Positions 16,040 through 64,000 of a DNA stretch of 64,000 nt are shown piece by piece. Source of the DNA: Amphiscolops sp. MND2022 (lineage: Eukaryota); the NCBI GenBank assembly GCA_964187785.1, contig OZ076414.1:39990001-40054000 (forward strand), read 5' to 3'. The position numbers and the translations under genes were made by a program. Under the pieces are notes generated by a model. It saw only the letters and a program-made list of their open reading frames with translations. It was not told where the DNA came from and did no database searches. How positions within the stretch are numbered: position 1 is the stretch's first letter; each line of letters opens with the position of its first letter.

Positions 16040-16268
16040 AGAGAATCAAAATTAGATCTGAAACGCGTTTTTCGTGTTCAATCCATTCTTTCATTGTTGA
16101 TGAGTTTTTCAAGCAGTCAGTAAAATAGACCTTTCTTTCACATCCGTTTTTTGATGAAATCACATATGTGGGGTACAACAAATTGCTCACAGTCAGTTTT
16201 GCCATTTTTTGTCTTTTGCAAATCAAATCGAATCCCGCATAGTGCCTTCCCGAGTCGCAGCAACAAAC

Positions 16269-20415: not shown

Positions 20416-20619
20416 TTCCCAAAAGCAAAACTGGGAATTGATGGCTTTCGAGGTTCAAGATGTTTCCTATTCAATAAATAAACTTTACTGATCTCGAATT
20501 GATTGTTTTACTGAATGAGATGTATGAACTTCGAAGTTGTTTGCTTCTCCCGATACTCACTGGGTGTCACTTTCATTTTCGTGTTCCATTTCATAAAACG
20601 TAATATAAAGGAGATGTTT

Positions 20620-28641: not shown

Positions 28642-28868
28642 TGAATTGCAATAGCGAGTTGGATACTACTCAATTTTCAGTACAACTGACTTCTGTCGCT
28701 TTAGGAAATTCGTTTCACCGTTTGCGGTAAGCTGTGAATTGTTCAGTCGGCAGACTGATTAACTCTCCTTATATAGTAGATAACTTCTAATATTATTATT
28801 TCCCTTGTTTTTACGCCACATCTTCATTGTGTTACCATTTTTAGTACTTTTTCAGAACGTTTTGAGAC

Positions 28869-31800
28869 ATGCGCTCCACCGAAGAGGATAATTCCTTGTT
28901 GTGTCAAAGTCAGGAGATCGGCTTGAAGGAGAGTGAGGCTGAGGTAGAGTCAGTCGTCGAGTCAGTGATCCGTGGAGAGGAGAGAGTGGATGGTAGTGGT
29001 GACACGGATGAGAGTGATGAGGCGAGTGTTGCTGGTAGTCAAGACGGAGAGGCTGTTGCAGGCGTAGTGGCCGAGACGACAGGACGTGGATTTGGTGAAA
29101 ACGATGCCACAGAAGATGAAATTGTTGAAGCGGATGTTGATAGCTGCCCTGAGAGTGGGTCCTACCGTTCTGCCACAAGCTATGGTCGTCATGACATAGA
29201 TTACGTGGCGAACAAGAAAGGTAAGCTTTCCTAGAACTTAAATGGGTGGCCGGCTCTTTCTAGTTTTGTTTGAACGCGTTCTTTTCACATCGACTTTCCG
29301 CAATTACTGATGATGATGAGCTTGATGAAAATTATTGTCCAAGCGCCAATACAAAGTCGCAGCACAAGAAGAAGAAGAAGTGTTGCTCCAGTCGGATGCT
29401 TTCAACGAGCAGTGTCCGGTCAGCTAAGCGTGTGCGATTGGCTGATGTTGTTGCAGGGGTCATTCCAAGGCCTCCCACTTCGATGGACAGCTCTGGCGAG
29501 GATTATGATCCGCTGACTATTTCTGCTTCTAGAACTCTTGAAAGTAGGTATACCTTCATCCTGTTTTCTTGTTTGTTTGCTGCATCATAGATCTGGTTAT
29601 TGATTGAAGATGTTCTGTTTTAGAATATGAAGAACTGTCTCGGTTATTGAAACAGAAAGTGATTGATGCCAGTGATCCTGGGCGTGTTTTGGACCCTGTC
29701 GAACTCAAAAACGAACGGCTTTTGGCTAGAGACGAGGAAGGCGCAAAAAAACAGACTGAGAGGCATAAACTAAAGCCACGACCACCCACCTGATACCAAG
29801 GCTATTTGTCAGTCGTCGGAATGATAAAAGCCCGAACGGCTTGAATTGCTCTGTGTGCCGGAAGGATGTGTCCTTCCTGTCCCGTGGGCCCCTAGGCATT
29901 TGGATGCACTTTAAGTGCAGAGGCGATTACGCAAAGGATCGGTGTTACCGGTTCGAGCACGAGGACTTCATCTATACTGAGAAGTTCGATGCCATCCCTG
30001 TTAGTGAAGTGTCATTTGAATTGCGAGCTGAGATCGAAAAGACGCCACCAGTAACTCTGATAAAAATGAAGAACTTTGTTGAGGACGAGGTGGATGCATT
30101 GGTTGGCGTCCCGTCCAATGTGCCCCCCACTATACTTGTTGGTTGTTTGTTTGAGCTTTTGAGGAGTGGTGGCTCACAGACGTTCGTTTCTTCGTCGTCT
30201 GTGCGTCAATTTCGTACCACACTTCTAGTCGATTGCCTAATCGTATGCCTGTGTTACCTGGAGCAAGTCTGAGACCTTGGTTGTGATTGTTCAGACCCTG
30301 TACCCACGCGTACTTCGTCGTTTGAAGTCATGGCTAGGTGAGAGCCCTTTTAGCTTGTCAGCGCAATCGTTATTCTACGGGGTGCGATTTACCGTCCGAT
30401 GCTGTCCCGATGACTCTTTGCGGGAAGTATGTCTCGTGGATGAAGACGTTGGAGTTGCTTCCTGTGAATCAGAAATTCGGTGTCTATCCAGCGTGTTGTC
30501 CTTGGCGTCCACTCGCCGTGGGCCTATTGCTATTCAAAACTGCCCTCCTGTATTATTTAACGCTTATGTGGATTGGTGTCGTTCTGTCGGTCGACCTGTG
30601 CCTGTTGTTGCTGCCATCTTTGACTCCGATCTTCTCCGTCGTTTAGTTCGCGATGCTAGTTCGGTGTGTGCTGGGTCCGTGGATCCCTTTGCAGCCATAG
30701 AGTATCTGGCATAACGTTTGAAGAAATTTTTTCACCAGGCCTGGCTTCTGAACTTGCCACAATTCCGTCTCTGCTTGGAGTCTGGGGTTGTTCCTTGTGA
30801 GACCTTGAGTGATGTATTGCAAGAGCTCCTGGACAATTGGTCCGATGTCAAAATGTGTCTATCGAACGATGTCTTGCTGATGAGGAAAAACATCAATGTC
30901 GTAGATCTGCATTACCTCCTGTGTTCAAACTGTTTGGGTCTGCCTCGACTAGCTTTGTTGGACGTTCTTTTGCTGTTTTCGTTCGAATTGCAAGAAGTTG
31001 TTTGAATCGGGAGTTACAGATTACACGAGCAGGAGTTTTCCTGATTTTTGATTTTTTTCTATTGGAGTTTTATGAGTAAGGTGAAAAAGATAAGCCAGTC
31101 ACCTTCTATCGACAATTGGTCTTACTACATTGACAAGCCATTGAACAGTTCGGCAAATGTGACTGCTTCTGAATGTCTGCAAGGACAACCCAGTTTCATG
31201 AAGGCACTGACTGGTCTTGACGAGGGTCCCGGCGGTCATTCCTCCGTGAATGTCTAGGATATTTATCAGAATTTTTAAAGGTTCTTGGTTCGTGCTCTTA
31301 CGCCAAATTTCGTGTTGCTCGATCGCTCAGTTGCTTGAGTGTCGACATGCTGTTGGGTGGTGACGCCGACTATGTCATGGATTTATTCCAGGACCTAGTC
31401 CTCTGTCTCCAGGAATCCGGGTGTCTGGGCGATGTGGAGCGGGATGCCGCAACAAACGAATTTAAATTTTTGGTTGTGGATTTACGTCAACGGTGTGTTG
31501 ATTGCTCACAGATTTCTGATGTGTTCAACTATTTGGAGGGGATTGAGAGTTACCAGTGTTGGGCCTATGTAAAGCAAATTGTGCAACTGGTTCGTGTGAT
31601 TGTTTGCCCTGCTCCCAAATCATTGCTCTTGTTGATATTTCCACTAGTGGGACGAGCTTGCCTCCGTCTGTGATTCGGTCAGGTCTCCGTGGTGTACAAT
31701 TGTTTGTGTTGCAGCCTAATTTCATGTCGTCTGATTTACTGTCTGTAGAATGCCTGGAGGAGTTGAAACTGAATCTGCCTAATGGACCTCATTTTTTGGG

Positions 31801-32068
31801 TTGTGGCTCTTTCAATCCATGGGCTGGCGTGAATCGTCATTCCAGTGAAGAGATCTACAGTAGTTTGTTTGAGTGCTACACTGCCTATTATTCTGGGCAG
31901 GTGGAGGATTGGAGGACACGGAAGTCGTCTGGTGCTGCAGTGCGTTCGGGCTCTACTGTTGGTCGTGTCTCTGCTGATTGTAGCCAGCCTGAGTCGTGTT
32001 CGTCATCTCAGGCGGGAAAAGGAAGTAAGCGTGCTGCGCGTCAAGGAAGTCATGTTGAACTCTTTTAG
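28869..32068 (+). pseudogene. Antisense, intron-containing ~1000-codon gene within the Gypsy element (acidic N-terminus, basic NLS-like tracts, CxxC..H Zn-finger-like motif)
   Basis: ATG 28869. Introns 29221-29303 and 29544-29623 restore the reading frame. KKKKK, RSAKRVRL, CSVCRKDVSFLSRG..WMHFKC. ORFs 29841-32068 are contiguous, broken only by stops and shifts. Confidence 0.75.
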
Positions 32069-32399
32069 AAAAAAAGAGTGTCGATGGACTTCTTGTTAAC
32101 TTTGTTTGATTTGTATTTCTAATTTTTGCTTCTGATGAATTATTATTTGTTTTTTCCGTAAAGTTCGGTTCCGCGTTTTGGTTTCACTAGTAAAAAAAGA
32201 AAAAAATTGGCATGCTCTGGTAGTATAGAGATATGTACAAAGGAGCAAAAAAATCGAGGCGGTTCAATGATCCGCAGGGTCAGTTAATTTAGTATTTAGT
32301 CTCTGTATCGTTTTCATCCAAGTTGTAGAGTAAGAGAGTGTGTGAGAGAGTCATTGTAGGTTGAGGAGATTTGAAATTTAGACGTAGGATTGCCGTCCA

Positions 32400-35300
32400 T
32401 GTCAGTGCCTGGGGCCAAACTTTGTATTTCTGAACCATCGTCCAGGTTTTTGTTCGAATTTGCAAAATCTGCAGAATTGACTTCTAGAGCGTTGTAGTAT
32501 GCATAGTCTGGTTTCCAGTTTGAAGCTGGGTTTCTTCGAAGATTGTAATGAGATTTTCGGGGGATTTAGGAACAGGTGCATTGTCGTCGGGTTCATCGGC
32601 AATATCTAGGGTTGGGTCATCTGCCTTGTTTCCTGGTTGGTTACCGATGTTTTCAGGTTCGTGCATCAAGTCGGGGCTCGATGAGCTGGGTGGGTGGTAG
32701 CCTTGTCTGTTTCTGGAGTTGGCGGTATCAGTTCGGGTTCGGGTGTCTATTTTCGGGGTGGGTAGGGTGTTCTTGGTGGAGTTCTTGCCAAGCCATTGCG
32801 AAGAGGTCGTCGTGTTGTATGGCTACCTCGGTATCCTGTTGAAAATCTTTAGGTGGGACTGAGATGTCAGGTAGTTTGTGGCTGCTTGCGAAGGGTCGTA
32901 ATCGGATTCTGTGCAGGATCTGTGTGAGGTTTGTTTGGAGTTTTCGTATGAGGTAATTATTGTTGGGTTCTGACCACGCTATATGGGTTTTGACCACGAT
33001 ATATGGTCCCGCCCAAAAGTATTCCCGAAACGGCAGTTTTGTCGCTTGGCTGTGCGCCTTTGGATGTAATGCATAGCAGTAGTCGTTTACTACCAGTGGA
33101 TGTGCTGATGCTTTTCTGTCATAATAGCGTTAATGACGAATATAGGCTTGCATCAAAGCCTGCTGACTCTGGTTGACGATCTGTTGTGTTTGTTGCAACA
33201 CTGCCTCAGCTAGTTCGTGATTGATTGGAGTAGTGGGTGGTGGTTCAAGACCGTACTTCAGGTCGAGTATGTTGTAAGCACTCTTCCGTAAAAAACTCTG
33301 CTGGTTTCGCATCCCAGGGATGTGTGGTATGAGGTAGTGTAGTTCAATCCTGCCATCGGTAGGAATTGGTGCCACATTGTGCGTCTTTCTCCCGTCATTA
33401 TTTTGAGACTTTTTTTAGGGAGGCATGCGTCCTTTCCAGGATGACTATCGTCTGGGCGTGTTTTTTGGTAGCGTGTTTCAGCTGGATTTCCAAGATTGCG
33501 GTGGTTTTTTGCATTGCTTCTGATGTAAATTGGGATCCTTTATATGTTGTTATTGTTGTGGGTAGGTAGCAATGCCTGGTTAAGATGTCTGTTTGAACCC
33601 GGGTGACTGTTTAGGTATCATATCTAGCAACGCTTTATGCAAAGAGATATCTGGAGAACACGTCCATCGCCGTAATGACTGCGCTGTAGCTTGCTGATGG
33701 GTCGTCAAATGGTACTATTTTCAATTCAAGTGCATCTTCGGGTCCCATTGCTATTTTTGACAAATCAATCAGCGGTGGTGTAATGGTACTAATGGGTGTC
33801 CTTTTAGTCTTGGTGCTTTCCATGCATTGCGAGATGTGGTTAGCTCTTCTGGTGGCAAACCCTGGGAAGTATTACTTCTCGCGGCATTGTTGGATTGTTT
33901 TGGCTATTCCTGGGTGTTTTCCATATTTGCCATGGTGGTGTTGGATGAATTCGTTGACCAATTGTTGAAGGAGCAGCACTTGTGAGTATTTCATTTTTCC
34001 GGTATCTCCAAAAATTTGTCTGTACAGAAGTCCGTTTTTGATGATGATTCGGTCCTCTTGGGCTAAGTATTTTGCTGCTCTGGGGTCATCATTTAGAACT
34101 TGGCTGTCATATAGCTCCTTCAATATTTTGAGTTTGAGGTTTCTGAGGACGGGGTCCTGATCTGGGTGTGGTCTCAGGCTGCGTGGAAAGTTTATATCGT
34201 GATGTAGCTGGCGCCTTTGTTCTTGTTCCGGGTCTTGGATGTTGTTGCAGACTAATGGTAAATTCTCCGTTTGGGAGTTCGTTTTGTTTGTATCGGTTTG
34301 AGGATCAGTTTGTTGTTCTTGGGGATTGTAGATTTTCTTTCGGGTTCGTTGTTTTCGCTCCCAAATGTCCTTTTCTGTATCAAAGTTGTCTTTCGGCAAG
34401 AAGTAGAACTGGTCTTCTTCGTGTATATCGGCGGATTGGATATTCACTTGGATTGGCGTTGTTTGGATATCTTCTCTTGTTTGGAGGAGGACTTTTTCTT
34501 CGGGGCTGATATCCAAGCGGGAGAGGAAGTCCGCCGCTGTGTTAATTCTCCCTGGTACATGGGCGATTTTAAAGTGAAATTGCAGCACGATATCCCAGGC
34601 GCTCCAAAGGGAGGGTGGAATCATTTTGATTTGAAAAAACCTGGTGACTGATTGGTTGTCCGTTAGGACAATTGTTGGCTTGGAGGAGCCCCACAAGATA
34701 TAGCTATACTCCATGAAGGCAAAGTGGATGGCTAAAAAAATCCTTGGCATAAATTGTTATTTTCAATTGTGACGGAGAGCCAAATGCCAGTGGAGCATAG
34801 GTTTTCTTGGTAGAAGTTATTTTCTGATCCGGGTCCTCCTCGGTCATTAAGGCGTATTCTGTATTCTTGAAGTTGGCATCAGTCAATAGTGCATACTGCC
34901 GGTTTGGCAGTGGCTGTTTGAGCCAAAGCCCACATGCGTTGTCTAGCGACTTGTTGATGGCTTCAAAGTTGGTTATAAGTTCTTGGTCTAATTTTGCTGG
35001 TTTGTCCGACTTGATGAGTTCATGAAAAAAAAGCAATCTTCTCTGATAATCGGGGATTGTAACTTCTACAAATCCGATGTATCTTTGACGTCTTGTCTTC
35101 GTTCGGGGGGAATTTGATGGTCTGTAGGTATTTCTGGATCTTGTGACTCTGGTGTGCCACACCTGATGGGGAGATCGTCCACCCAAGGAATTCGACTTCC
35201 TTGTCGCCGAACAGATTTGGCCATTGTGAGCCGGAGTCCTGCTGCGCGGATGCATTGGGAGACCTCTCTCAAATTGTTTTTCAACTCCTCAGGAGTGTTT

Positions 35301-37330
35301 GTGGCAATTCCGATGTCATCCACGTATTGGGCACATTTGTCCGCCTTAATGGCCTTGTCTAGATACTCCCTCATGAAGCTTGAGAACGATGACAGTGAGC
35401 GACTCGGCCCCTGGGCCAACCTGAGGTACGCGAACGTCCTGCTGGCGAAGTTGAATGCTAGAAGTTGGACTGACTTCTGATCTGCCATCTGCAGTACGTG
35501 ATAAGCTTGTGAGCAATCAAGCCTACAAAACAACTTCTTGCCGGCGAGGTGCTGCGCTGCATCTTTTAGCGTGCTGACCGGATGATTATTGTTAATGTAA
35601 TCAACGAAAATCAGGTTATTGATCTTTCTGAGGTCTATTAGGAGTCGCAGTCGGCCGTTCGACTTGCGCTGATTGAAGATTGGGCTGGCATACTTGCTGA
35701 ACGGGAGGGTTGTTATGATCCCAAAGTAGTGCATTAAGGCCAGTTCAACTGTCAGGTCCTCGTTTATGTTGATGGGGCAAGGCAGGCTCTGTGCGTAGAC
35801 TGGTTCGTCTGTTTTCGCCGTGAGTTTAATTTTGAAATTGTGGTTGATTCCAATGACCAGTCAGTGCTTTTCCAAGATATCATTGAATTCTATTATTATT
35901 TCTCAAATGTCTTGAAGTTTTTCTGAAAGTTTTGAATCGTCCCATTTGAAATTTTGAAGGAATGCTTCTCGTTCTTTGGCACTGTTGTTTGGGTTGAGTT
36001 TCTGGATCTCCTCCAACTGTTTAATTACTCTCAATATTCGGCTTTGGATCGGAGTGTGGGTATTAGGATCTCCGGGATTGTCTGGTGTGGGGAACCAGAA
36101 ATTTTGATTACTGGACGGTTTATCGGGAGTTTTCAGAAGTTCGTTGATGTATATTTTTGCGTCTTCTGAATCATCCTCAGTGAGCACTTTAAGTGCTGCC
36201 GTGTTGAGTGGTTTGAGTTCTTCTGCTTCTTCTGGTGACATGATTTTGAACTCTGCAACTGTTGTATTCTTTTTGAAGGTGTAGGGCGTGGGGGTAGTGT
36301 TGGTCACCCTGACATCAATTTTTCGGTTTGAGGCCGTTGATATTGAGCTAGCTAACACCAGGGGGTCACCGCTGCAATGGTTGGTGGCTGGGTTGATGAC
36401 ACCGGTTGTGTCGATGGTGGATGATATATCCGTGTAGGCGGCGATTGTCTGCGTTGTCTCAGGTGGGATGGTGAGTGGGTTCTTTCCTTGGACTTTGCAT
36501 AGCTTCCTGTGCGGGTATATTCACCGGTTTCAATCGAACATGTTAGGTGGGGGAAGTTTAGCAGGCCCTGACTCACGTCCAGGATAGCGCTGTTTTTTTT
36601 TGAGAAATGTGAGGCGGAGTATTGGGCCTGTGAGACGTTTGGCGACGATAAACGTTTCCTCAAAGTTCTAGTCCCCGATTTCGAATTGGAGGATTGTCGT
36701 TTTGGTGGGGGTTTCGAGGTCGCCATTTGCGACTTGAAGTTTGAAAGGGGTGGATCCAATTTTTAGACTATGTCTTTGGGAGATATTTGGAGGATTTTGT
36801 TATAGTCCGTTTCGGACATACAGTTGACAAGAGCGCCGGAATCAATGAGTGCGTCCAGGGTCAGGTCCTGGAATTCCATTGGGGCGAATTGCATTTTCTT
36901 TTTCTTTTTGAGTGTCACCGCTGAGAAGATTGGGATGCTTTCTTCTTTAGTTACAGGGTCTTTGGTGAGGTATTCTGCAATCTGAGCAATGGGGTAGGAC
37001 TGGGGTTCGTCCTGTGTTGGTGTGTCGTTTACAGCACCTGAGGGGGATTCAGATTGCATGTTAGTTGCGGCAATCATGATGGGTGGAGGGTTCTCGACCT
37101 CATTTCCGGACTGCCTGATGATAGAGGAGAGAGGGGTTAATGTCCCTCTGTCTAGATGATTTATGCTCGGGTATTCTGCAGTCTGGTCTGCGGGGTAGGA
37201 CCAAGCTTCGTCCTGTTGAGGTGTGTCGTTTGCAACACCTGATGAGGATTCAGGCTGCAAGTTAGTTACGTCAGTCGTATTGGGTCGGGAGTCCTCGACC
37301 TCATTTTCGGACTGGCTGATCTGGGAGGGG
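32400..37330 (-). pseudogene. pol: Gypsy pol (protease, RT, RNase H, integrase), fragmented
   Basis: ALIDSGA (36763-37260), RLLIDLRKIN..LDCSQAY..YVDD (35066-35734), LLTDA and VLTDNQS, HHHG..HPG..C Zn finger, MDVFSRYLFA. Confidence 0.93.
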
Positions 37331-37334
37331 GGCT

Positions 37335-39269
37335 TTAAGAGTAGAGACCTTTTATTCTTTTTGTTTTCGGTTTGGAGGTGGTTGCCTCCGTGTTGATTGT
37401 GGGTTGTGTCGGGTCCACGGCTTCAATCGTGGTCCTGCCGGTGAGATGTTCATGTAAGAGGCAGTGGGATGCCACCTTCATTGTTGGAGACCGTATGGTT
37501 CCGGCTCTGATGGGGTTTAATGGTTGATCTTTCGATGGTGATTCTGGAGCCGTGGTATTGGATCCATGGTTTTTGAGTATGGATTTGGCCTTGTTGTTCA
37601 TATTATCGACTAGTGTTTCTGTCACTCGTTCCGTGTCCTTGTCGCAGTCTGGGACAGGTTGGACTGTTTTTGGTCTGCGACGTGGTTTCGTTGAGATGTT
37701 CATTCCGGTTTTCTTGATGTACTCCTCGGTTGGCGTGCACTCTCGCTGTTTGAAGGTTAATGTCACTTTGTCGTAGATTTGGGGATTGTGGCAGGGGTCA
37801 CAGTTGAAGTAGGGGTCGTGAATGTAGGTTTCGGGAGAGGTACTTTCTGGTAAGGGTCGTTTTGGAGTAGTATAGTCGGTCGTCGGATTGTCAAGGTACC
37901 ATTGCGGGCAGTCGTTTTTGGTCGTTGTTTGGCGGTTGTATTTGTGGAGCTTGTGAATTTGCCATCTTCGCTGCCAGTCGAGAGATCGTTGTTCACGGCG
38001 CTCTTTATGTTCATTACGTGATCGTATGTGTTTGGGGGTTCAGATGTTGTGAGATGTCGCATTTCGACAATTTCCCCAAACTGAAGATGTGACAAAGCTA
38101 GTTTTTTGGATGAGTTTGATCTTGGGGTTGGATTTGGGTTTGAGCTGCCATTTGGACAGGGGGTAGATAGCACATTTGGCCGGTTGCCTGGTGGTGGTAT
38201 TGAGGTTGGGTCGCTTGTAAGTTATCTTTTACGAACTGACCTTGTGGTTGTGGTGGTATCGGATTGTTGTTTGGGGACGTAGTCTTGGGGCTTTCCACCA
38301 CTGTGGTCTATTTGCCCAATCGGCACCCGAGTAGCAGTCTTGTGTTGTGTGGTTCGACAATTTTGTTGGGTACTCTGTTGCCTCTATTGCGAGCTTTGCG
38401 GGCTATTTTCTGGCAATTCTTGACAACGTGGCCAGTTTGTCCGCATCCATAACATGGGCCTGACAGTTTGGGAGGATTTGGGGCTTGTTGCTCACATTTG
38501 CAGCGGCTGTTGCGATGGAATGGGGTCGTACATATCGACGTCGGAATGTTGCAATGATGTCTTCCAGGCTGGCACGGTTTCTGTTGGTCATATTGCGGTA
38601 GGTTTGAAGCGCATCGTCCCTGAGTAGGGAATGGAAGTAATGAATTTGTTCTTCCTCAGAGATGCTAGGGTATACATTGAGGCTTGTCATGAAGAGGTCG
38701 TCGAAATGCTCGAATTTGTCATTCCGTCTGTTGAATGTAGGCATAGTTGTTGACAATGCCTTCGGCAATCTGGGAAGTCCGATGTTCTCTTGGGTAACAT
38801 TTTGGAGTGATTCAAGCAGTTTGTCGACTATGTGGTGCGGATATTTCTGGTTGGGAGGCTGCAGGCTCGATGACCGGGGCGGTATTTCTGTTTGGGGGAA
38901 TACTCCTGTCACCATGTGTTGACCCTCTAATGGGGGCAACTCGTTTATCACAGTTGACCTGGATGTTGAAGCTTGATTTTCAATATCTACATGATCTACT
39001 TCTGAATTTTCGGTCCTGGGCGTTTGACCGGACAATGGATTGATTTTTGAGGATAGATTTTCAATCATCTTGAGGATCCCTCTTTGGCCAATCTCGGTAT
39101 CTTTTATCCTTTTAATGACGGATTTTTCAATCTTTTCTGATATTTCACAGAAGTCTCGGTCAGAAAAGCTAAGCACGTTTTCAGTCCTTTGACTAGCGGT
39201 CTCAGGTTCATTTAGTGAACTAGATACAGAATCTCTTCTTGCTTTTCTTTTAGATGATCTCTCAGACAT
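37335..39269 (-). pseudogene. gag: Gypsy gag, starting inside the 5' LTR
   Basis: ORF 38403-39269 (MSERSSKRK...LPKALSTTMPTF..KFEHFDDLF..IHYFHSLLRDDALQTY), continuing in fragments to 37335. Confidence 0.85.
38903..38914 (-). promoter_or_regulatory. Primer-binding site TGGTGACAGGAG (first 7 nt match the tRNA-Trp 3' end)
   Basis: Directly follows LTR terminal CA. Marks where the 26370 and 38915 copies stop matching. Confidence 0.65.
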
Positions 39270-40575
39270 TTTGGTTTGGGATTTTCCAGAAAGTTCAAGA
39301 TTATTCGACGAAAATGAAGACAGTTGAGAGTTTTGATATTTATTGATTATCGAAGAACGAAGAAAACAAAATTGTTTTACAAGTAGGATTACAATTTTTC
39401 AACTCAATTTATTTCAAAATTTCCAGGTACATATATTGTCCGCACACGTGAAGCGGGAAAAGTCCGCGATACTTTCACACCTCGTTCAGCCCGGCGTCGT
39501 TCCAAGGCGAAGAAAAAGAGAATTCAATTCCGCTTTGTCGAACTCAGACTCTCATTTTGTTCATGCTTTTCGGGGAAAGCAAGCGTCCACTTCCTGTCTG
39601 AGTTGCGACTCCGCTTCCCTTCGCCTCCAATTCCCGCCTCTTCGGAACGCCGAAGCTGAAAAAAATGTCAAAAGTGAATCACTGCACGCACCCAAAGGGC
39701 GAACTAATGAAACAAAGCAACAATGAAATTGAGAAATTTCTCATATATATCCAATTAATTTAATCACTGCATAAACTGATGATCAATCCAGTTATGTTGA
39801 TGGACCAACAAACAGAACTATAATTTCACTCACAACACGTTAGCAGCATTGATTGAGAGAGGGAGATGAAAATCTTGGACCTGGGCTGCGGTCCAGGACG
39901 ATTAGGAAAATAATAACTTCTCATAGTAAAAAAGCTGAAATAGCAACACCTGAAATTTTACATGAAGCAAATTGTCTATGGGGCCTTGTTCGGGGTACTG
40001 ATTAATCCAATTGAACGAAAAATTGACTTGAAAAAGGTAGCACAAATCATTTATAGTACTTAAATTGCGCGGATTGAAAATTCAGTTTCAGGCCAAGGTC
40101 TGTGCCGTGATTTCATATATTTATCAACTATACTTAGTTTAGCTGAATAAATAGCATCGTACTTTTCTTTCAACTGTCAAACAATATTTTTAATCACTGT
40201 TATTAGTTGTTAGGCTCATTGGGAGGGAAAGTTACCAATAACATCAACATTTTCCATTTCGACAATGGATTTCATAAACTTTCCATTTCATGCCGCGTCC
40301 TAGGCCACGGTACATTGGTATTTTCAAATTTAGCACTCGTGTTCAATTATTTGCACAATTGCATGTATAGCGCTTTGTCAGTCATCTTTCCAACACTAAA
40401 ACTTTTACATATATTCGTTTTCAACTCGTTCGCATATTGGATTAAAGCGTGCCGTGCTTTCAGTTCTTAGGCCGCTTGCCAGGCCGACGCCTCACAGCTC
40501 GAATTTGAGGCCGGCTGCCAGCAGTTCCGCCATTAATTTCTCAGGCCGCCTGCCGCCTCGGTATTGGTTGGTACA
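38915..40575 (-). repeat. Gypsy 5' LTR (proposed)
   Basis: Direct repeat of 26370-28030. Confidence 0.7.
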
Positions 40576-41186
40576 CCTTCTATATATGTATTCTCCCATT
40601 TTCCTCCGTCGTCGACTGCGCTTGTTTCGTGGCAATTCTCACAGCTCAGCTGGGGATGTGACAGTCCTCGGCTTCTTTGCGCTGTCTCTTCTGGGAGAAG
40701 GAATTGGGAGACTAAGCGGATTGGTGTCTCCAATAGCGTTGGTAGGTCGTCTCTCATTGAATCGTATGACCTCCAGGAGGAATCTGTGTCCCAATTGCTG
40801 CCAGAGTAATATCCCTCCGAGCTGCTGTAAAAACTGATGGGACCATGGAAGCCATCTTCAGGAATGGCCGGATTTCCTTGGTCAAACTGTTTGACTGGGC
40901 TGATGAAGGCATCATCAGGATTTACCGGATTGTCCTGGGTGAATCGTCTTATGACTCTGTTTTCGTTCTCCGCGTTTGTAGTGTCGGGTGGCGTTTCTTC
41001 ATGAACTAAGACCACGTGTTGGTCTTGCGTCTTGTTAATCTCGTAAGTAATATTAATCCGCGGTGGAATAAATATATTGTATTTATGTGGTGGTGTACTG
41101 GGCCTTTGGCTTGGCTGTGCTGGCAGGTCTCAGTCGAGAATAAAAACATCGTCGTTTGTTTGATCATTCATAATTGTATTCTCCAT
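40533..41186 (-). CDS. Small acidic accessory ORF (copy C), in-frame TGA at 41130-41132
   Basis: ATG 41186, same frame as listed 40533-41015 ORF. Confidence 0.55.
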
Positions 41187-41413
41187 TGAATTGCAATAGC
41201 GAGTTGGATACTAGTCAATTTTCAGTACAACTGACTTCTGTCGCTTTAGGAAATTTGTTTCACCGTTTGTGTTAAGCTGTGAATTGTTCAGCTGGCAGAC
41301 TGAACAACTCTCCTTATATAGTAGATAACTTCTAATATTATTATTTCCCTTGGTTTTACGCCACATCTTCATTGTGTTATCATTTTTAGTACTTTTTCAG
41401 AAAGTTTTGAGAC

Positions 41414-42661
41414 ATGAGCTCCACCGAAGAGGATAATTCCTGGTTGTGTCAATGTCAGGAGATCGGCTTGAAGGAGAGTGAGGCTGAGGTAGAGTCAGTC
41501 GTCGAGTCAGTGATCCGTGGAGAGGAGAGAGTGGATGGTAGTGGTGACACGGATGAGAGTAATGAGGCGAGTGTTGCTGGTAGTCAAGACGGAGAGGCTG
41601 TTGCAGGCGTAGTGGCCGAGACGACAGGACGTGGATTTGGTGAAAACGATGCCACAGAAGATGAAGTTGTTGAAGCGGATGTTGAGAGCTGCCCTGAGAG
41701 TGGGTCCTACCGTTCTGCCACAAGCGATGGTCGTCATGACATAGATTACGTGGCGAACAAGAAAGGTAAGCTTTCCTAGAACTTAAATGGGTGGCCGGCT
41801 TTTTCTAGTTTTGTTTGAACGCGTTCTTTTTACATCGACTTTCCGCAGTTACTGATGATGATGAGCTTGATGAAAATTTTTGTCCAAGCGCCAATACAAA
41901 GTCGCAGCACAAGAAGAAGAAGAAGAAGTGTCGCCCCAGTCGGATGCTTTCAACGAGCAGTGTCCGGTCAGCTAAGCGTGTGCGATTGGCTGATGTTGTT
42001 GCAGGGGTCATTCCGAAGCCTCCCACCTCGATGGACCGCTCTGGCGAGGATTATGATCCGCTGACTATTTCTGCTTCTAGAACTCTTGAAAGTAGGTATT
42101 CCTTCATCCTGTTTTCCTGTTTGTCTGCTGCATCAAAGATCTGGTTATTGATTGAAGATGTTCTGTTTTAGAATATGACGAGCTGTCTCGGTTATTGAAA
42201 CAGAAAGTGATTGATGCCAGTGATCCTGGGCGTGTTCTGGACCCTGTCGAACTCAAAAACGAGCGGCTTTTGGCTCGAGACGAGGAACGCGCAAAGAAAC
42301 AGACTGAGAGGCATAAACTAAAACCACGACCAACCACATGATACCAAGGCTACTTGTCAGTCGTCGGAATGATAAAAGCCCGAACGGCTTGAATTACTCT
42401 GTGTGCCGGAAGGATGTGTCCTTCCTGTCCCGTGGGCCCCGAGGCATTTGGATGCACTTTAAGTGCAGAAGCGATTACGCAAAGGATCGGTGTTACCGGT
42501 TCGAGCACGAGGACTTCATCTATACTGAGAAGTTCGATGCCATCCCTGTCAGTGAAGTGTCATTGGAATTGCGAGCTGAGATCGAGAAGACGCCACCAGT
42601 CACTCTGATTAAAATGAACAACTTTGTTGAGGACGAGGTGGATGCATTGGTTGGCGTCCCG
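41414..42661 (+). pseudogene. Second copy of the antisense intron-containing gene, cut by the gap
   Basis: Canonical introns 41766-41848 (GTAAGC..CCGCAG) and 42092-42171 (GTAGGT..TTTTAG). Confidence 0.78.
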
Positions 42662-44118: not shown

Positions 44119-45702
44119 TTCATGTAATTATTATTGAACAGCAACAAAACTTTTGAATTGTTTATTTTTTACAAACTCCACTGATCTGTAATTGATTGTT
44201 CAAATAGTTGCTATAAGTCAATTTTGTTCAATTTCGCTAATTTATCATTTTCGCGCTTCTTTATTTAGAGATTTTAAACCTTAGCTTTACTGAAGATTCT
44301 AAAAAGTGATGACTGCCGTCAACCATCTCCAAGAAGAAAGTTAGAATCTTCCATGCAAATCATTTCCATCCATAATCTAGTCATTGACATTTCCTACGAC
44401 CTGAGTACGATACGATGGTTGAAATACTTTGGTTGCTCGTACCCGAAGGGCAAAAAGGACATAAGTATCCACACCCGATCAATTTCAGCCATGAAAAGCA
44501 TCAAGAAGTGCTAGTCACAAATGTTTAGGGGTAGGAGGTATATAGCACTATACACTAAAACTAACCTTTTTGGAGTACTGGACGCACTAAGAACCGAGCA
44601 AGTAGAAATTAGACTGCATGCAAAGTTTTAGGCAAAATGACGGCTGGATAAGCCGGTCGTTCGTTTCGTTAAAAATAGTTTGTGAATTGCCAGTTTGTGT
44701 TGAACCGTGATAAGAGGCTTTGACGACTGCGGCATGACAATTGGTGTATTATGAAGAGTTGAACTCATCGATGATACAAAAATGTTTATGGATATCCATT
44801 TATGATTCCGGATCAAGTCCATAGCATGGCGAGCAATGAATCATGGTTAAATCAGGGATAGAATTGGATGGCCGGACAACCTGGGTGCTCGTTGAAATCA
44901 CAGAGTAATGTGACAAATTTTGTGTTCACGGTCTGGATCTCTGCAACCACTGTGGTCTTGCGATATTCTACAATATTGTTTAGTCTAGCCTTTCGACTCG
45001 CGAGCTGCTCTGCTTTTTAACCGCTTTTTTTAAGTTTGTACGGAAATATCTGATGTAACCATAGATTTTGAAAAAGATAGTTCAGTCACAAGAAACAACT
45101 AGCGTAAACAAATTGTTCCCATTCTGCTAACTTTCCAACTATCTATCACTCATCAAAACAAAGTGTTGAACGTTCCTAGTTTCTATATCTATGCAGCAAA
45201 AAAGCCTCAATAACTAGGACACACCTTTCACTTACATGCGTCCAGTACTCCAAAGTGTTTAGTTTTAGTGTATAGTGCTATATCCTCTTACCCCTAAACA
45301 TTTGTGACTAACACTTCTTGATGCCTTTCATGGCTGAAATTGATCGGGTGTGGATACTAATGTCCTTTTTGCCCTTCGGGTACGAGCAACCAAAAGCATT
45401 TCAACCATCGTATCGTACTCAGGTCATAGGAAATGTCAATGACTAGATTATGGATGGAAATGATTTGCATGGAAGATTCTAATTCTCTCCTTGGAGATGG
45501 TTGACGGCAGTCATCACTTTTTAGAATCTTCAGTAAAGCTAAGGTTTAAAATCTCTAAATGAAGAAGCGCGAAAATGAAAATTAGCGAAATTGAACAAAA
45601 TCGACTTATAGCAACTATTTGAACAATCAATTACAGATCAGTGGAGTTTGTAAAAGATAAACAATTCAAGAGTTTTGTTGCTGTTCAATAACAATTCATG
45701 AA
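44119..45702. repeat. ~465-bp inverted repeat (arms 44119-44586 and 45237-45702)
   Basis: The arms are reverse complements by eye with few mismatches. The right arm ends at the ATG of the protease homologue. Confidence 0.88.
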
Positions 45703-46544
45703 GGCAGCTTTTGATTTTGGCAATAATGCATTTCATAATTAGTTTTGGCATTGTGTTCGAAAGTGACCTTTGGGATTATTGGAGGCCACCAGCACCAGAC
45801 TACCCTTTCTTCGTAGTGGTTAACAGAGGGTTTCACCAGTGCGGTGGTACTCTTGTAAGGCTAGATGGAGTTTTAACTGCTGCCCATTGTCTTTACTTTG
45901 GAGCTGAGAACCGATGGGCTTCTCCTCTCGAAGTTTACATACTTCACGGAGATTTCTCCAGTCCCAACAATTGGCGAGTGAGGTATCATTCTTGCGAACG
46001 ATATTGGGTTCACTTCATGTATGAGGCTTCCAGAAAAAAAGGACCACGAAGTCCTTTTGATGCTGCAATAATCAAACTTGACGATCAAGTGCGCAGACAA
46101 AGTTCCTCGCAACAAGCAATTCTTCCGTTTTGCCGTAAAGAGGGCCATAAGTGGAAGAAAGGCAGACTTGGCTATGCCATTGGTTTAGGTATTACTAGTT
46201 TCAATCCAATATCACGAGCTGAGAGACTGATGGAAACAACGTTGCGGATGATTGAATGCCAAAGCCTTGACTTTATGAAGCAAGGAGAAAATTTTAGGGA
46301 AAGACGTTGTTATCGCTTTCAGAAAGAATCGTCACTGAGTGACGGTGACTTTGGTGGACCGATGGTTTTCAAGAAGAGAGGTATAGCGGTTTGTCTAATG
46401 GGTTCTTCCAGCTTCACATCTTATTGTCATAATGGAGACTTTTCTGCAACTATCTTTACCCCAGCAGGAGACTTGTGGCATTGGCTAAGCAATGTATACA
46501 GATATAATTTCACTGAAGACTCTCGCGCAGCCGAAATTTCGTAA
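45698..46544 (+). CDS. Intronless trypsin-fold serine protease homologue, catalytic Ser->Phe; indel(s) in the leader/IIGG region
   Basis: CGGTLV, TAAHC, PFDAAIIKL, SDGDFGGPM. One base is missing after ATTATTGGAGGCC relative to the paralog at 20.3 kb. Confidence 0.85.
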
Positions 46545-47364: not shown

Positions 47365-48499
47365 TAGATCGTTTCAAAAAGTTCGGGAGACTAGGTACTA
47401 GTCATTTAATTAGCGATGCTGAATCACTTCAATTTCGGCAACCATGCGAAGCAAACGCGCATCTGAAGACCTTGCAAAATCAATATACCGTTTTGAAGAT
47501 GCAATCATGGATTATGCAAACTCAGCAATTGCTCGGATTTTATCGATTTCCGAGTCAACACATAGAGGAATCCTGAAGCGACGTATTAGGCGGTCTGACA
47601 GACAAAAATAGTCAAATTGGGTCGAAAAACTGTACTCACAAGAAGAATCAAGAGTCAGCTTCTGGGCCGCGTTAATCGAAACCCAAAATTCCGGCTTTCT
47701 GACCTTCTGCTTACAGCCAGACGACTTGTCTCCAAAGCCACGTCACACTGGTTTCTGCAAAATCGCGGTGTTTGGAATCGTGTTGCTGTACAAGACGTTC
47801 TTACGAATGCTCAAAAAGATAGACGAGTTAACTGGTGCCGTCGACATTTATTTGTTGACTTCACAAATACTAATTTTCAGCGACGAAACTGTTATTTCCC
47901 TTCGACCTGGTAAGAAATTCGGAAGCATTTACGTTTACAGAAAAGCTGCTCAAAAATTTTTACCCCGATTCCTTACCAGCACACCCCAAGAATTACAGCG
48001 AGGATCCGACACAATATGGGGCTGCATGTCGTATTGCGGTTTCGGTTGCTTGGAAACGTTTATTGGTACCATGGATAGCCAACATTATGTGGAGGATACA
48101 TTGGAAAACTATTTGAGACCGAGTATTGACTTGTTGTACCCCTTTGGAGACAGTATTTTCCAACAAGACAATGCCCCACCTCACAGTGCAAGAATCACGA
48201 AGCAATGGCTTGCGAACTACGGTATTAATGTTCTGGATTGGCCACCATATGCTCCAGATTTGAACCCTATCGAACACGTGTGGGGACATTCGAAGGAAAA
48301 ACTTTATACTTCGATGCCTTCAACGACACAAAAAGTTATGAACACTTTTTTGAGCCTATGGAACGAACTTCGAACTCAATATGCTGAAACTTCAGTTTTT
48401 TCAAATTATAGTCGAATGGATAATGTAATTCAGACTAATGGATTACGTCATTGGAAAATTAATTAGTTCTAGTCTCACGAACTTTATGAAACGGGTCTA
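47365..48499 (+). mobile_element. Tc1-family DNA transposon (DD34E), frameshifted transposase 47444-48466
   Basis: SDET..FQQDNAPPH..WPPYAPDLNPIE with 34 residues between D and E. TIRs TAGATCGTTTCAAAAAGTTCGGGAGACTAG / CTAGTCTCACGAACTTTATGAAACGGGTCTA. TA flanks. Confidence 0.93.
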
Positions 48500-54960: not shown

Positions 54961-55083
54961 CGTTCCTTTCTGCTCGAATACATCTCTGCGCTCACTGTTT
55001 TTTGTTTCTGCCTAAAGAGTCCATGTTTCACAGGCATATAACAGGTCGCTATTTCCGTACAAATAAAATCAACAGCGGATGTC

Positions 55084-57284
55084 TTCTAACGGGATTCTCT
55101 CTGCGTTCGAGCTTCATTAAGTTGAAATTTTCTAAAAACGTCTGCCAATTTTGTTTCGAGGCCTTTGCGGTAATATAAATCTATGGACATTGGCCGCTGT
55201 ATTTATCTGCGAAGTAAAAGTAAGTTTTCATTTCAAATAACAATAGGATTGTTCCGAAAAGACAGTCTTCGTAAAGAAGAAATCTTCGTAGTTTCCAATT
55301 GTGTGGAAAACGTGAAACGATATTTTTTGCTGAGAAATATTCCAAAATAAGTGAAAACCCAGACTCCAATAAATGTGATGCTGTGAAAATTTTTCAAAAT
55401 TGTTCGATTTTGATTTTACGTATCAATCTGCAGTTTTTGGAAACATTCATCTATTCCATTTAAGACGTTCTATCCTTTTTCCACGGGGCAGCTCATGGTG
55501 ATTAGTAGCATATTGATCGACATGATTCACCGTCCGGCCCAAAAATAGCAAAGTCTCTTTAATTCGCACAGGTGTGCCAAAAATTCGCACATAGGCCCTT
55601 AGGTCTCAATTTAGTTGATTGAAATTTTAAAAATAGGCCCCTCCGGGGCTCAGTACTATTTCTGCTTTAATCTTTAATTTTTTTTGAAACAAAAAAATCA
55701 TTAATAAAAGAATCATATCTGGAATACCAATAAACTCCTGTTTAATCATTACTTAGAGCACAATTAATCACTGTACAAGTTTACACCGCCTTTAATTCTT
55801 CTCGGACTAAAGAAAATATAACTACTAAGCGTAGGCGAAGTTTCGCATTCGCATTTGAATGCAGGCGAAGCTCTCAACGAACGAATAATTAACACTCATT
55901 CGCTTCATCTCAATAACTCGGGGCAACGAAAGCACAATTACGAACATTCGCTCGCTTCATCTCAATGACGTCAGCATACGAATGGATAATTACCACTCGC
56001 TCGTTCCATCGCACTAGAATTGAATTGTCTTCGGCAGCTCTCTCGCTTACACTCACTGCTGAACCAGCTGGACCCACCACAGAAATGAAACAATGATGAT
56101 TTGTACTGATTCTCTTGTTCATGATGTTTGACCAGATAAAATATGACCTATGCAAGCTGATAGAATCGCTAGAATCCCGGAGGTGTGTTCTAACGGGATT
56201 CTCTCTGCGTTCGAGCTTCATTAAGTTGAAATTTTCTAAAAACGTCTGCCAATTTTGTTTCGAGGCCTTTGCGGTAATATAAATCTATGGACATTGGCCG
56301 CTGTATTTATCTGCGAAGTAAAAGTAAGTTTTCATTTCAAATAACAATAGGATTGTTCCGAAAAGACAGTCTTCGTAAAGAAGAAATCTTCGTAGTTTCC
56401 AATTGTGTGGAAAACGTGAAACGATATTTTTTGCTGAGAAATATTCCAAAATAAGTGAAAACCCAGACTCCAATAAATGTGATGCTGTGAAAATTTTTCA
56501 AAATTGTTCGATTTTGATTTTACGTATCAATCTGCAGTTTTTGGAAACATTCATCTATTCCATTTAAGACGTTCTATCCTTTTTCCACGGGGCAGCTCAT
56601 GGTGATTAGTAGCATATTGATCGACATGATTCACCGTCCGGCCCAAAAATAGCAAAGTCTCTTTAATTCGCACAGGTGTGCCAAAAATTCGCACATAGGC
56701 CCTTAGGTCTCAATTTAGTTGATTGAAATTTTAAAAATAGGCCCCTCCGGGGCTCAGTACTATTTCTGCTTTAATCTTTAATTTTTTTTGAAACAAAAAA
56801 ATCATTAATAAAAGAATCATATCTGGAATACCAATAAACTGTTTAATCATTACTTAGAGCACAATTAATCACTGTACAAGTTTACACCGCCTTTAATTCT
56901 TCTCGGACTAAAGAAAATATAACTACTGAGCGTAGGCGAAGTTTCGCATTCGCATTTGAATGCAGGCGAAGCTCTCAACGAACGAATAATTAACACTCAT
57001 TCGCTTCATCTCAATAACTCGGGGCAACGAAAGCACAATTACGAACATTCGCTCGCTTCATCTCAATGACGTCAGCATACGAATGGATAATTACCACTCG
57101 CTCGTTCCATCGCACTAGAATTGAATTGTCTTCGGCAGCTCTCTCGCTTACACTCACTGCCGAACCAGCTGGACCCACCACAGAAATGAAACAATGATGA
57201 TTTGTACTGATTCTCTTAGTCATGATGTTGGACCAGATAAAATATGACCTATGCAAGCTGATAGAATCGCTAGAATCCCGGAGG
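55084..57284. repeat. Near-identical 1.1-kb tandem duplication (55084-56183, 56188-57284)
   Basis: Identical ORFs at 55181 and 56285 (offset 1104). Confidence 0.95.
57161..57223 (-). pseudogene. N-terminal stub of a Polinton-type packaging ATPase, truncated inside Walker A (second copy 56060-56122)
   Basis: MTKRISTNHHCFISVVGPAGS, then unrelated sequence where GKT/S is expected. Follows the PLA2-like and membrane ORFs. Confidence 0.55.
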
Positions 57285-57573
57285 AAACTTTGTTGTCGTT
57301 TTCACAAAGAGTTAGGAAAAGAATACAGAACGTAAAAACTGCAATAAGTATGAAATAATGTAAAAAGACCAACACCAGCGACCTTTCGACTCGGGAATTA
57401 CAACAACAAAAAGTGTAGGGTGGTCTTTCGTTGTCTGTTTGGTCGAATATGATTCTTTCAAGGTTCGGAACCGATAAATTTCCGTGATCGATTTGATCCT
57501 CTTGATCGCTTCGGTTGTTCAACGACCAGTTACTGTAGTAGCCACTAGTATGGCTCAAATCAGGGCCGCTCAT
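57220..57573 (-). CDS. Small membrane protein with two C-terminal hydrophobic segments (Polinton/adintovirus-like)
   Basis: FCCCNSRVERSLVLVFLHYFILIAVFTFCILFL..SGILAILSACIGHIL. ATG start. The stop overlaps the next ATG (ATGA). Confidence 0.6.
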   Translation of the reverse strand: MSGPDLSHTSGYYSNWSLNNRSDQEDQIDHGNLSVPNLERIIFDQTDNERPPYTFCCCNSRVERSLVLVFLHYFILIAVFTFCILFLTLCENDNKVSSGILAILSACIGHILSGPTS

Positions 57574-57658
57574 AACCTAGCGTAGTTTTGAATCAAATTG
57601 ATATATCTCCACTTCAGGATGCAACTGAACGGAATAATATTCAAAGTACAAATGATTG

Positions 57659-58033
57659 TTAAAATGGAAAAGCATCGAAATGCTCTCGATGGAACAATTT
57701 GACGAATAACCAATATGATATTCCTGAGAAATGTCCTAGAAGCATATTGTTGTGGAAAGACTGAGACTTTGTGAGAGTGTAGACGTAACCTGGGCCAATT
57801 TCCTCGAAGCTGCGCATGTACTCATAAGCATCATGGAAAATTGCATGCATCCTAAAAATTTTTGAAAACTTTAGATAATTATCCAACTTACTATTGCCTG
57901 GCCCTATCTTGCCTCCGAATGGTGCTTTAAGGTTAACTTCCCTCAAATCAACATTCTCGTCTATATAACGACAAACTGCTAAGAAAGCGTTTTTGGTGGT
58001 GCTGTTTTTAGGAAAGCAGTAGTTAACTGCCAC
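57659..58033 (-). CDS. Viral-type phospholipase A2-like protein (start codon unclear)
   Basis: KIGPGN Ca-loop-like motif and HAIFHDAY catalytic HDxY-like motif. Confidence 0.7.
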   Translation of the reverse strand: MAVNYCFPKNSTTKNAFLAVCRYIDENVDLREVNLKAPFGGKIGPGNSKLDNYLKFSKIFRMHAIFHDAYEYMRSFEEIGPGYVYTLTKSQSFHNNMLLGHFSGISYWLFVKLFHREHFDAFPF

Positions 58034-58150
58034 AAAATTGTCTCGCAGAAAACGTTACAGTTTCTCTGAAAGTTTGAATTGTAAAACAAGCCAACTGTTT
58101 TCAAATTGAAATTAATTATAAAAGAAGCCAACTGTTTCCAAATTGAAATT

Positions 58151-59083
58151 TTACAGAAATGAAATATCGATTATGGTGTCTTCATTATAAGGGGAAAACA
58201 GTTGAGAGCTTGATGGTGTGTTGTCGATAGCTTCGTCGAGTTGCAAAGGTTGGTTCAGACATTCAAAGCACATGCATTGAGCATTTGAGACTCCCAGATC
58301 AATATCCAATATTCTACTGTGCTCTGATAGAAAAAGTCGTCCGATACCTCGTTGTAAAAGTTCAATATAAGATATCACAGTATCCTTGAAAGGCGCATCA
58401 CTTTTTTCAAGTTCCACGAGCTTTTGGAAAATGTATAAAGCCTTTTCATTATCGGGACAGTCACCCAAGGAATTGTGTCTGTTAAGTTCCCAAACGCAGT
58501 TGAAACTACAACCCAAACTTTCAGTTGTTTTCCGAGTCATTAGACTCTTCATTCTCTCCCCTTCTACAATGAGAGATCTATGACAAAAAGTTGACGTCTC
58601 TGTTTTCAGAAAGTTTTCTGGATACGAAACTGTGAGAAGTCGTACCATTGCCCATTGTTCATTGGACAAAACTTGTGAAATGGTTTGTTTCAACATTGTT
58701 TCTGCGTTAGTTGATTGTGGGAGGTACAAGAGAACATGATGATGATTTGTAGGCATGGCTTCACAAAACTCGTCCAGCGATCCATTAGTAGAGTCCTCTT
58801 TAGTATGAACTCTTCCAATGAATTGGCATTTGTGAGAATTGGAGAGTATTTCCAGCAATTTGGAAAGACTTGTTGGTGATTTTGAGTTGCTGTCCTTCTC
58901 GTAGACATCACTGTAGATTTGGGATTCTTCCGTTGAAAACAAGAGCAGCCAATAATTACTCGGTATTTCGCGAAACACTGAAGTCATTTCGCGCCTAGTG
59001 GTAAGGCTTGTTAACTGTTCCGGAGACGATTTCAAGTTATAATGACGATTTTTCTTATCACACGTATCATCAACGGTAAACAT
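58151..59083 (-). CDS. 310-aa intact ORF with HUH-like motif (NHHHVLLYL) and CxCxxC
   Basis: ATG start, no interruptions, first gene inside the AGTAGT terminus. HUH assignment is by motif only. Confidence 0.55.
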   Translation of the reverse strand: MFTVDDTCDKKNRHYNLKSSPEQLTSLTTRREMTSVFREIPSNYWLLLFSTEESQIYSDVYEKDSNSKSPTSLSKLLEILSNSHKCQFIGRVHTKEDSTNGSLDEFCEAMPTNHHHVLLYLPQSTNAETMLKQTISQVLSNEQWAMVRLLTVSYPENFLKTETSTFCHRSLIVEGERMKSLMTRKTTESLGCSFNCVWELNRHNSLGDCPDNEKALYIFQKLVELEKSDAPFKDTVISYIELLQRGIGRLFLSEHSRILDIDLGVSNAQCMCFECLNQPLQLDEAIDNTPSSSQLFSPYNEDTIIDISFL

Positions 59084-59464
59084 GAAAAATTCCTTTGGAA
59101 GATGCCAATGGAAAGTTCCATGTAGAAAGCACAGTTTCTAGGTTTGTGATATTTAGATACTGCCGGCCCTGTTTTTTTTCAGTTTCGGGAATCAGAATTA
59201 TCTTCTAAATATATCAATGTGTCATTTTCGGAAATTTATTTATATTCCCATTGCTGCTGCTGTCAGAGGACGAAAGGTTAGAATTTTATAGTGAATTTCT
59301 TTGCACTGCAATAATGCATGAATAAGAAGCTATTTCTTTCAATTCAAGTTTCAAATACTTAAAAGTCGGTCTGCTCGATAGTTTAATATCATTAGTTTGC
59401 ATTAGTAAACATTCATGACAATTGGCATACATTCCGCTCGGTATGGTTAAAATGAACTTTAACC

Positions 59465-59581
59465 TTTCTGACTTAGAATAATTTCGGTTGGGAGCCCTAA
59501 AAGTGAGATAGGTTTCTGACTTAGAATAATTTCGGTTGGGAGCCCAAAACATCATTAAACCCCCCCCCTGCTATTACTACT
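59465..59581 (-). mobile_element. Probable Polinton/Maverick terminus with 48-bp-period direct repeats
   Basis: Minus strand starts AGTAGTAATAGCAGGGGGGGG at 59581. A 33-bp repeat lies at 59465-59497 and 59513-59545. The flank GACATCGATTATTTT is the middle of a repeat seen intact at ~63886. Confidence 0.55.
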
Positions 59582-59820
59582 GACATCGATTATTTTAATA
59601 TGCGTATATATTATTTTAATCGCATGCGTATATTTTCAACAGTTCAACTTTGTTCAATAACGTCCCTATGGCACAGTGGTCAACACTTATGCCGTGCAAT
59701 CGGGAGGCTGCAGGTTCGAATCTCTCTGGGGTTTTAGCTTTTATCTAAAAGGCGCTCATTATGAAGTTGACTATAGTGGAAAAAAAACTTACTTAGCTGG
59801 ACTTCGTCATGTGCAATAAA
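59582..59820 (+). repeat. tRNA-derived interspersed repeat, 5'-truncated copy (tRNA-like core 59662-59731)
   Basis: A-box TGGCACAGTGG, B-box GGTTCGAATC. Poor cloverleaf pairing. Three copies in the window. Confidence 0.75.
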
Positions 59821-61676: not shown

Positions 61677-61975
61677 CACAGAGGCGAAGCGGTGCTTCGC
61701 AACACATGACGAAGACGAATCATGGCTAGACGAATGCCGAAAAATCGTATATATTCAATCGCATGCGTATATATTCAACAGTTCAACTTTGTTCAATAAC
61801 GTCCCTATGGCACAGTGGTCAACACTTATGCCGTGCAATCGGGAGGCTGCAGGTTCGAATCTCTCTGGGGTTTTGGCTTTTGTCTAAAAGGCGCTCATTA
61901 TGAAGTTGACTATTGTGGAAAAAAAACTTACTTAGCTGGACTGCAATGCACATTGACTTCGTCATGTGCAATAAA
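61677..61975 (+). repeat. tRNA-derived interspersed repeat with GCGAAGC-GGT-GCTTCGC hairpin (core 61801-61870)
   Basis: Core identical to 59662-59731, preceded by the hairpin. Confidence 0.75.
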
Positions 61976-63776: not shown

Positions 63777-64000
63777 AACAAGACGAGAACGTCTAAAGTC
63801 GGCGCCATATTTAAGGCTCAAAAAAGTCGCCTAGAGTCGAAAAATATACACAGAGGCGAAGCCGTGCTTCGCAACACATGACGAAGACATCGATTATTTT
63901 AATATGCGTATATATATCATTTTAATCGCATGCGTATATATTCAACAGTTCAACTTTGTTCAATAACGTCCCTATGGCACAGTGGTCAACACTTATGCCG
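63777..64000 (+). mobile_element. HINE-like start joined to hairpin and tRNA-like core (runs off the window)
   Basis: AACAAGACGAGAACGTCTAAAGTCGGCGCC matches the minus-strand start of 4486-4841. Hairpin at ~63855-63872 and tRNA-like core from 63968. Confidence 0.7.

Follow-up and report, generated by a model that had tools for sequence, protein, structure and literature searches.

A conserved first gene with a predicted Rep-like fold in a Polinton lineage of Amphiscolops

Introduction

What does a protein that resembles rolling-circle replication initiators (Rep proteins) do as the first gene of an integrating virus with a polymerase of its own? The question is raised by a 64,000-nucleotide stretch of the genome of Amphiscolops sp. 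MND2022 (assembly GCA_964187785.1, contig OZ076414.1, positions 39,990,001 to 40,054,000, forward strand; hereafter the window), whose minus strand carries one end of such an element. A first-pass annotation had proposed a Polinton or adintovirus whose first open reading frame, here called ORF1, is a helicase-less HUH-like gene of parvoviral or bidnaviral origin. I report that the element is indeed a Polinton/Maverick, that ORF1 is a real, conserved, unannotated gene, and that its product may be an initiator which has lost nicking and now binds DNA.

Results

ORF1 is a conserved gene under purifying selection

ORF1 (58151–59083, minus strand) is open over 310 amino acids in the window copy, and the motifs reported for it were all located: KCQFIGRVH (residues 85–93), NHHHVLLYL (113–121) and, within CMCFEC (270–275), CxCxxC. 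Most relatives begin at the position of M33 (58987), which is probably the start used in the family. A word search found 50 relatives, none of which bears a Pfam domain or a name, and a profile search found 129 representatives. ORF1 itself gave nothing above cut-off in Pfam (the best row, DUF7050 at E 0.01, lies far under it), no match in PHROGs and no usable match in the ESM Atlas. Rows for FGF1 and reverse gyrase among PDB sequences (E 0.02–0.03) do not fit the predicted fold and were set aside as chance. No relatives were found in viral_contigs; a metagenome scan gave none with the member P0116 and two loci with A1, one of which (L098) was dropped as a chance bacterial match. A profile built from the most diverse alignment returned only two members, both known, and did not enlarge the family. 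The ratio of nonsynonymous to synonymous substitution rates (dN/dS) was 0.18, 0.21 and 0.16 in three unsaturated pairs, a range that omits the saturated pairs L021–L053 and L054–L055 and the near-identical pair L050–L060. ORF1 is thus under purifying selection. One relative, P0009 (59% identity), lies on a contig of 14,262 bases, the size of a whole element.

The N-terminal domain is predicted to resemble Rep and origin-binding domains

The N-terminal domain (about residues 40–190; 58514–58966, minus strand) is predicted to adopt the fold shared by HUH Rep proteins and viral origin-binding domains. The predicted structure matches plasmid RepB and the origin-binding domains of polyomaviruses best, those of polyomavirus large T and papillomavirus E1 scoring Z 7.1–7.7, with parvovirus NS1 and NS2 close behind. 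The comparison with the parvoviral NS1 nuclease that had been proposed gave a match (TM-score 0.35) that is not the best one, and a specifically parvoviral or bidnaviral origin is not what these results indicate.

A different explanation is that the domain is an ordinary ferredoxin- or RRM-like zinc-binding fold that merely resembles Reps, its HxH zinc site having arisen independently. This reading is rather unlikely, and three observations speak against it. Rep-type chains align with ORF1 over about 100–134 residues, including elements past the fourth strand, against 70–95 for most generic folds. The HxH lies on the central strand (82–88 of model 2), aligned with H55 and H57 of RepB, and a third histidine lies on the preceding strand, as in RepB. 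Finally, the family profile scores a mean of 8.5 bits on 120 RepB-family proteins, which are related and not independent sequences, versus -1.4 on shuffled and -1.6 on reversed ones. No superfamily 3 helicase is fused to ORF1, and the family members, 224–341 amino acids long, have no P-loop family match, longer fused forms being covered by the representative search only. An HUH-Rep-like fold without a helicase is a moderately supported prediction for the N-terminal domain, and the helicase-less HUH-like gene of the first-pass annotation stands at that strength.

The C-terminal domain (about residues 194–276; 58256–58504, minus strand) carries the conserved residues W198, H255, C270, C272 and C275. 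No fold was identified for it, a negative that is uninformative, since the domain was barely covered by the fold searches and never folded alone.

No catalytic tyrosine is conserved in the family

Residue conservation was counted over 18 diverse members, with a larger alignment of 60 rows. Nine positions are invariant in the 18: H93, C107, H114, G175, W198, H255, C270, C272 and C275. The second histidine of the HxH, H116, is present in 17 of them, and the residue between is H in the window copy and Y in 8/18. RepB binds its metal through H39, D42, H55 and H57 and attacks with Y99 (PMC5030251). As the pMV158-family RepB (PF01719) is the best structural match, the likeness is worth spelling out: both proteins have a histidine on strand 2, the HxH on strand 3, a small C-terminal domain and no helicase. 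Unlike RepB, ORF1 has no Asp42 and no conserved equivalent of Tyr99, has an invariant cysteine and the C-terminal H..CxCxxC, and belongs to a linear virus that integrates and encodes a polymerase itself.

The helix that follows strand 4 (155–165) is devoid of tyrosine in 18/18 diverse members and in 59 of the 60 rows of the larger alignment, so that the earlier remark that no clear catalytic tyrosine is visible holds family-wide. F158 was considered as a replaced catalytic tyrosine, but diverse members have C, F, T, A or S in this column, whose register is not fixed, and the idea was given up. Could ORF1 nonetheless be a nickase, using Y154, another nucleophile or a partner to cut the element's ends and release a single-stranded copy from the chromosome? 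Y154 stands just ahead of the helix and is kept in nine of the 18 members, but the other nine carry N, T, D or E there, among them a family of which the Amphiscolops genome holds many open copies, and no other column holds an invariant tyrosine. The extra invariant cysteine would, moreover, close the metal site, and the element has no hairpin origin. Such a nickase seems distinctly improbable and, for lack of a conserved catalytic tyrosine, the family is not classed as an HUH endonuclease. The conservation pattern suggests that the His-Cys-His-His set forms a closed, four-ligand structural zinc site that replaces the open catalytic metal site, and that H255 and the CxCxxC likely form a second one.

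The element is a Polinton

Searching the same genome with a 2.44-kb query gave 451 candidate places, 40 of which were scored; more than 2 kb of the query was covered in 38 of these, the window among them. Ten copies traced further are 13.9–14.3 kb long, with terminal inverted repeats of ~240 bp. Both inverted ends, of the (AGT)2 type, are present in all ten, and an exact 6-bp target-site duplication flanks nine. Seven of the nine copies compared with copy L021 match it in a single piece at ≥99%; the family is young and has spread recently. Scattered breaks are frequent: the pPolB frame is interrupted in 9/10 right-hand stretches, and in 7/10 copies one or more of the eight left-hand genes tested have no full-length frame.

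Gene annotation of the full element comes from one copy (L021/L022), which reads, in order, ORF1, a PLA2-like gene, a membrane protein, an A32 packaging ATPase (PF04665, E 3.9e-7), two unknowns, an rve integrase (PF00665, E 1.2e-9), genes of 325, 169 and 417 amino acids, and an adenovirus-like C5 cysteine protease (PF00770, E 4e-5), with pPolB on the opposite strand (PF03175, E 1.3e-15). The 325-, 169- and 417-residue genes occupy the penton, core and hexon slots and are labelled by position; those of 417 and 325 residues are conserved, their library match being weak (Capsid_N, E 0.058, in 2/8). Of what complete copies had been expected to show, pPolB, integrase and the 6-bp duplication were found, and candidates for the capsid genes by slot. 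This anatomy fits the definition of Polintons given in PMC8097293, and the element is a Polinton/Maverick. The frame before the polymerase core (L022:2065–3564) opens with several C2H2 zinc fingers, and the Cys/His-rich N-terminal stretch of the integrase (L021:4406–5560), for which Pfam gave rve only, looks by eye like a PHD finger.

The PLA2-like protein is 135 amino acids long in sister copies, and its GPG and HD motifs are invariant (9/9). It had no PLA2 match in Pfam or PDB searches; the label is given because of the motif and of PMC8502044. In the database protein P0162 the C-terminal half of an ORF1 relative is fused to the PLA2-like protein, probably in a degenerate copy.

ORF1 is an old component of its lineage

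Searches of the Amphiscolops genome with two distant ORF1 members listed 137 and 150 matches. In all 14 loci fetched from the first list, the PLA2-like gene and the ATPase come after an ORF1-family gene, and in 13 the order continues to the integrase, the stretch taken at the fourteenth having run in the wrong direction. In the second list, the ORF1 match lies ahead of the PLA2-like gene in 7/8 loci, the window protein giving none in L077. The same four-gene order recurs on a metagenome contig (L097). As these loci were chosen through ORF1, they show that the gene resides in Polintons, not that all Polintons carry it. Nine loci gave ORF1 and ATPase trees whose supported groups agree, and the pairwise identities of the two proteins correlate (rho 0.93, the pairs not being independent). 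By this agreement ORF1 was gained long ago and has been inherited since; it is an old fixed part of its Polinton lineage and was not captured recently. Farthest from the window protein are members P0103, P0116, P0141, P0159 and P0169, sequences without genomic context, and P0116 and P0169 have at most about 34% identity to anything in the Amphiscolops genome.

A possible role at the termini

Short direct repeats lie near the terminus in the window and in 8/9 other loci examined, and their core, GG(C/A)TCCC-like, is alike by eye in several loci. No terminal hairpin was found, the left 252 nucleotides folding worse than 192 of 200 shuffles (z +1.77). The element encodes a polymerase and an integrase, ORF1 has no helicase domain and the terminus no hairpin; this combination does not point to rolling-circle or rolling-hairpin copying. 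Polyomavirus and papillomavirus origin-binding domains are nuclease-dead, of Rep type, and bind repeated origin sites. A Rep-like fold lacking both a conserved catalytic tyrosine and a helicase likewise makes a DNA-binding role likely for ORF1. It probably derives from a rolling-circle initiator and, to judge from its conserved residues, has probably lost nicking. The explanation I favour, at somewhat less than an even chance, is that ORF1 is a disarmed initiator, a nuclease-dead, metal-stabilised DNA-binding protein that acts at the element's termini. By analogy with the viral origin-binding domains, it would occupy the terminal direct repeats and there help to initiate protein-primed copying or early transcription.

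One alternative keeps the Rep ancestry and moves the site of action. ORF1 might be an inactive relative of densovirus NS2-type accessory proteins that, through its zinc-binding C-terminal domain, regulates viral or host expression or binds a host protein, away from the termini. The best BFVD rows include models of densovirus NS2 (E 2.2e-4 and 9.3e-4 over about 250 columns), the first-gene position would suit an early regulator, and the C-terminal Cys/His set is invariant. ORF1 also diverges faster than its neighbours, identity to it falling to 22% while the hexon-slot gene holds 56% and the ATPase and capsid-slot genes together 51–56%. The TM-scores to NS2 models are low, however (0.18–0.24, under the 0.35 of NS1 nuclease domains), and the NS2 comparison consists of fold-search rows. 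I regard an NS2-like role as rather unlikely.

In another version, an entire lineage of animal Polintons has domesticated an initiator of the rolling-circle type, keeps it permanently as its first gene and uses it at its termini, the protein possibly still cutting DNA by tyrosine-free or shifted-tyrosine chemistry. I give this version little credence; if true, cutting by ORF1 would supply the missing step of Polinton exit from the chromosome. Beyond the polymerase and integrase, the Polinton literature cited here, in its accessible parts, names no protein for end recognition or chromosome exit. A conserved first gene with a predicted Rep fold beside repeated terminal sites is a small, soluble and concrete candidate for in vitro assay. 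Were the disarmed-initiator explanation correct, the element would join polyoma- and papillomaviruses as double-stranded DNA viruses in which a rolling-circle initiator has become a plain origin binder, here with its metal histidines retained.

Relation to described systems

The closest described elements are animal Polintons/Mavericks (adintoviruses, Eupolintoviridae), apparently of the PLA2-bearing Alpha or group 2 type (PMC8097293, PMC8502044, bioRxiv 10.64898/2026.06.19.733378). Shared with them are the (AGT)2 ends, terminal inverted repeats, 6-bp duplication, pPolB, rve integrase, A32 ATPase, cysteine protease, PLA2-like gene and length of ~14 kb. The present element differs in its first gene, which is fixed and whose product is predicted to have an HUH-Rep fold. 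HUH genes are not mentioned in the accessible text on animal Mavericks in the bioRxiv paper, and the term is absent from the accessible part of PMC11161782 and from one supplement file of PMC8502044. The latter paper lists PLA2X as well as unassigned 'Adintoc' genes, which could include the ORF1 family. Literature searches on Polintons, Mavericks or adintoviruses in connection with HUH, rolling-circle or origin-binding proteins, and on NS2 structure, turned up no description of ORF1; a 2024 review (PMC11426020) and the bioRxiv supplements may bear on novelty.

HUH genes are reported in mriyaviruses and related protist viruses (PMC11253617). Mriyaviruses, too, are mid-size double-stranded DNA viruses with a stand-alone HUH protein, but they lack a DNA polymerase and keep the tyrosine motif (PMC11253617), whereas this element has pPolB and an integrase and lacks that motif. 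Gene exchange between parvoviruses and Polintons has already been proposed for bidnaviruses, which acquired a Polinton PolB and gave up the endonuclease, an exchange in the reverse direction (PMC4061559). In the parvoviruses themselves, the NS1 nuclease domain and densovirus NS2 are among the ORF1 fold matches, while the ORF1 element has neither helicase nor hairpin end; a search of its own genome gave no parvovirus NS1 match, the control being silent too. In large T and E1, the origin-binding domain is joined to a superfamily 3 helicase and has no metal histidines. ORF1 is predicted to belong to the same fold class and, unlike them, has no helicase and keeps the histidines.

The copy in the window is a deletion remnant

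The window holds the left end of an ordinary Polinton, left by a deletion. Its AGTAGT terminus (59581–59576, minus strand), noted in the first-pass annotation together with internal direct repeats, is the left end of 20/20 sister loci compared. The left terminal inverted repeat (59388–59581, minus strand) starts with AGTAGT and a run of G, corresponds to the right-hand terminus of a full copy, and lacks one 48-bp unit that full copies have. It contains two direct repeats of 37 nucleotides spaced 48 (59465–59549), candidate protein-binding sites, against three units in L021. The expected flank GACATC adjoins the left end (59582–59587, plus strand) as a presumed target-site copy; its partner is lost with the right end.

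Downstream of ORF1, the PLA2-like gene (57659–58060, minus strand) retains the announced IGPGN and HDAY but is broken at its 5' end, leaving a 63-residue ATG frame (57659–57850). The open 117-residue membrane-type frame (57220–57573, minus strand), which occupies the same slot in sister families, had been called a two-helix protein; over 19 residues, hydropathy gives one strong stretch, reaching 2.7, and a second, weaker one at 1.4. The ATPase stub that had been noted (57161–57223, minus strand) comprises the first ~21 codons and is cut inside Walker A, after GPAGS at 57161; its counterpart in sister copies is the Pox_A32 gene.

All 20 compared loci diverge from the window sequence at 57158–57161, where the remnant joins the interior of an unrelated high-copy repeat (56760–57160, minus strand) over 4–5 shared bases. 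Insertion of a second transposon at 57160 was rejected: the junction falls within that repeat and on the few shared bases, which fits a deletion. No other piece of the element was found in the window. A 1.1-kb tandem duplication (55080–57284, 99% identical) takes in the last 123 bp of the remnant and the junction, and is therefore younger than the deletion. The left flank is itself a repeat (59582–59803, with further copies at 61746–61942 and 63886–64000) and shows a tRNA-like box by eye.

Other features of the window

Three tandem units, each about 2.2–2.3 kb, occupy 9276–16082. Long direct repeats 12.5 kb apart (about 26370–42206) surround broken reverse-transcriptase-like frames (33872–39398, minus strand) and have the appearance of a long terminal repeat retrotransposon. 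Labelled by eye, inverted copies of a trypsin-like protease frame lie at 19951–20454 (minus strand) and 45702–46544 (plus strand), and a Tc1/mariner-like transposase frame at 47612–48466.
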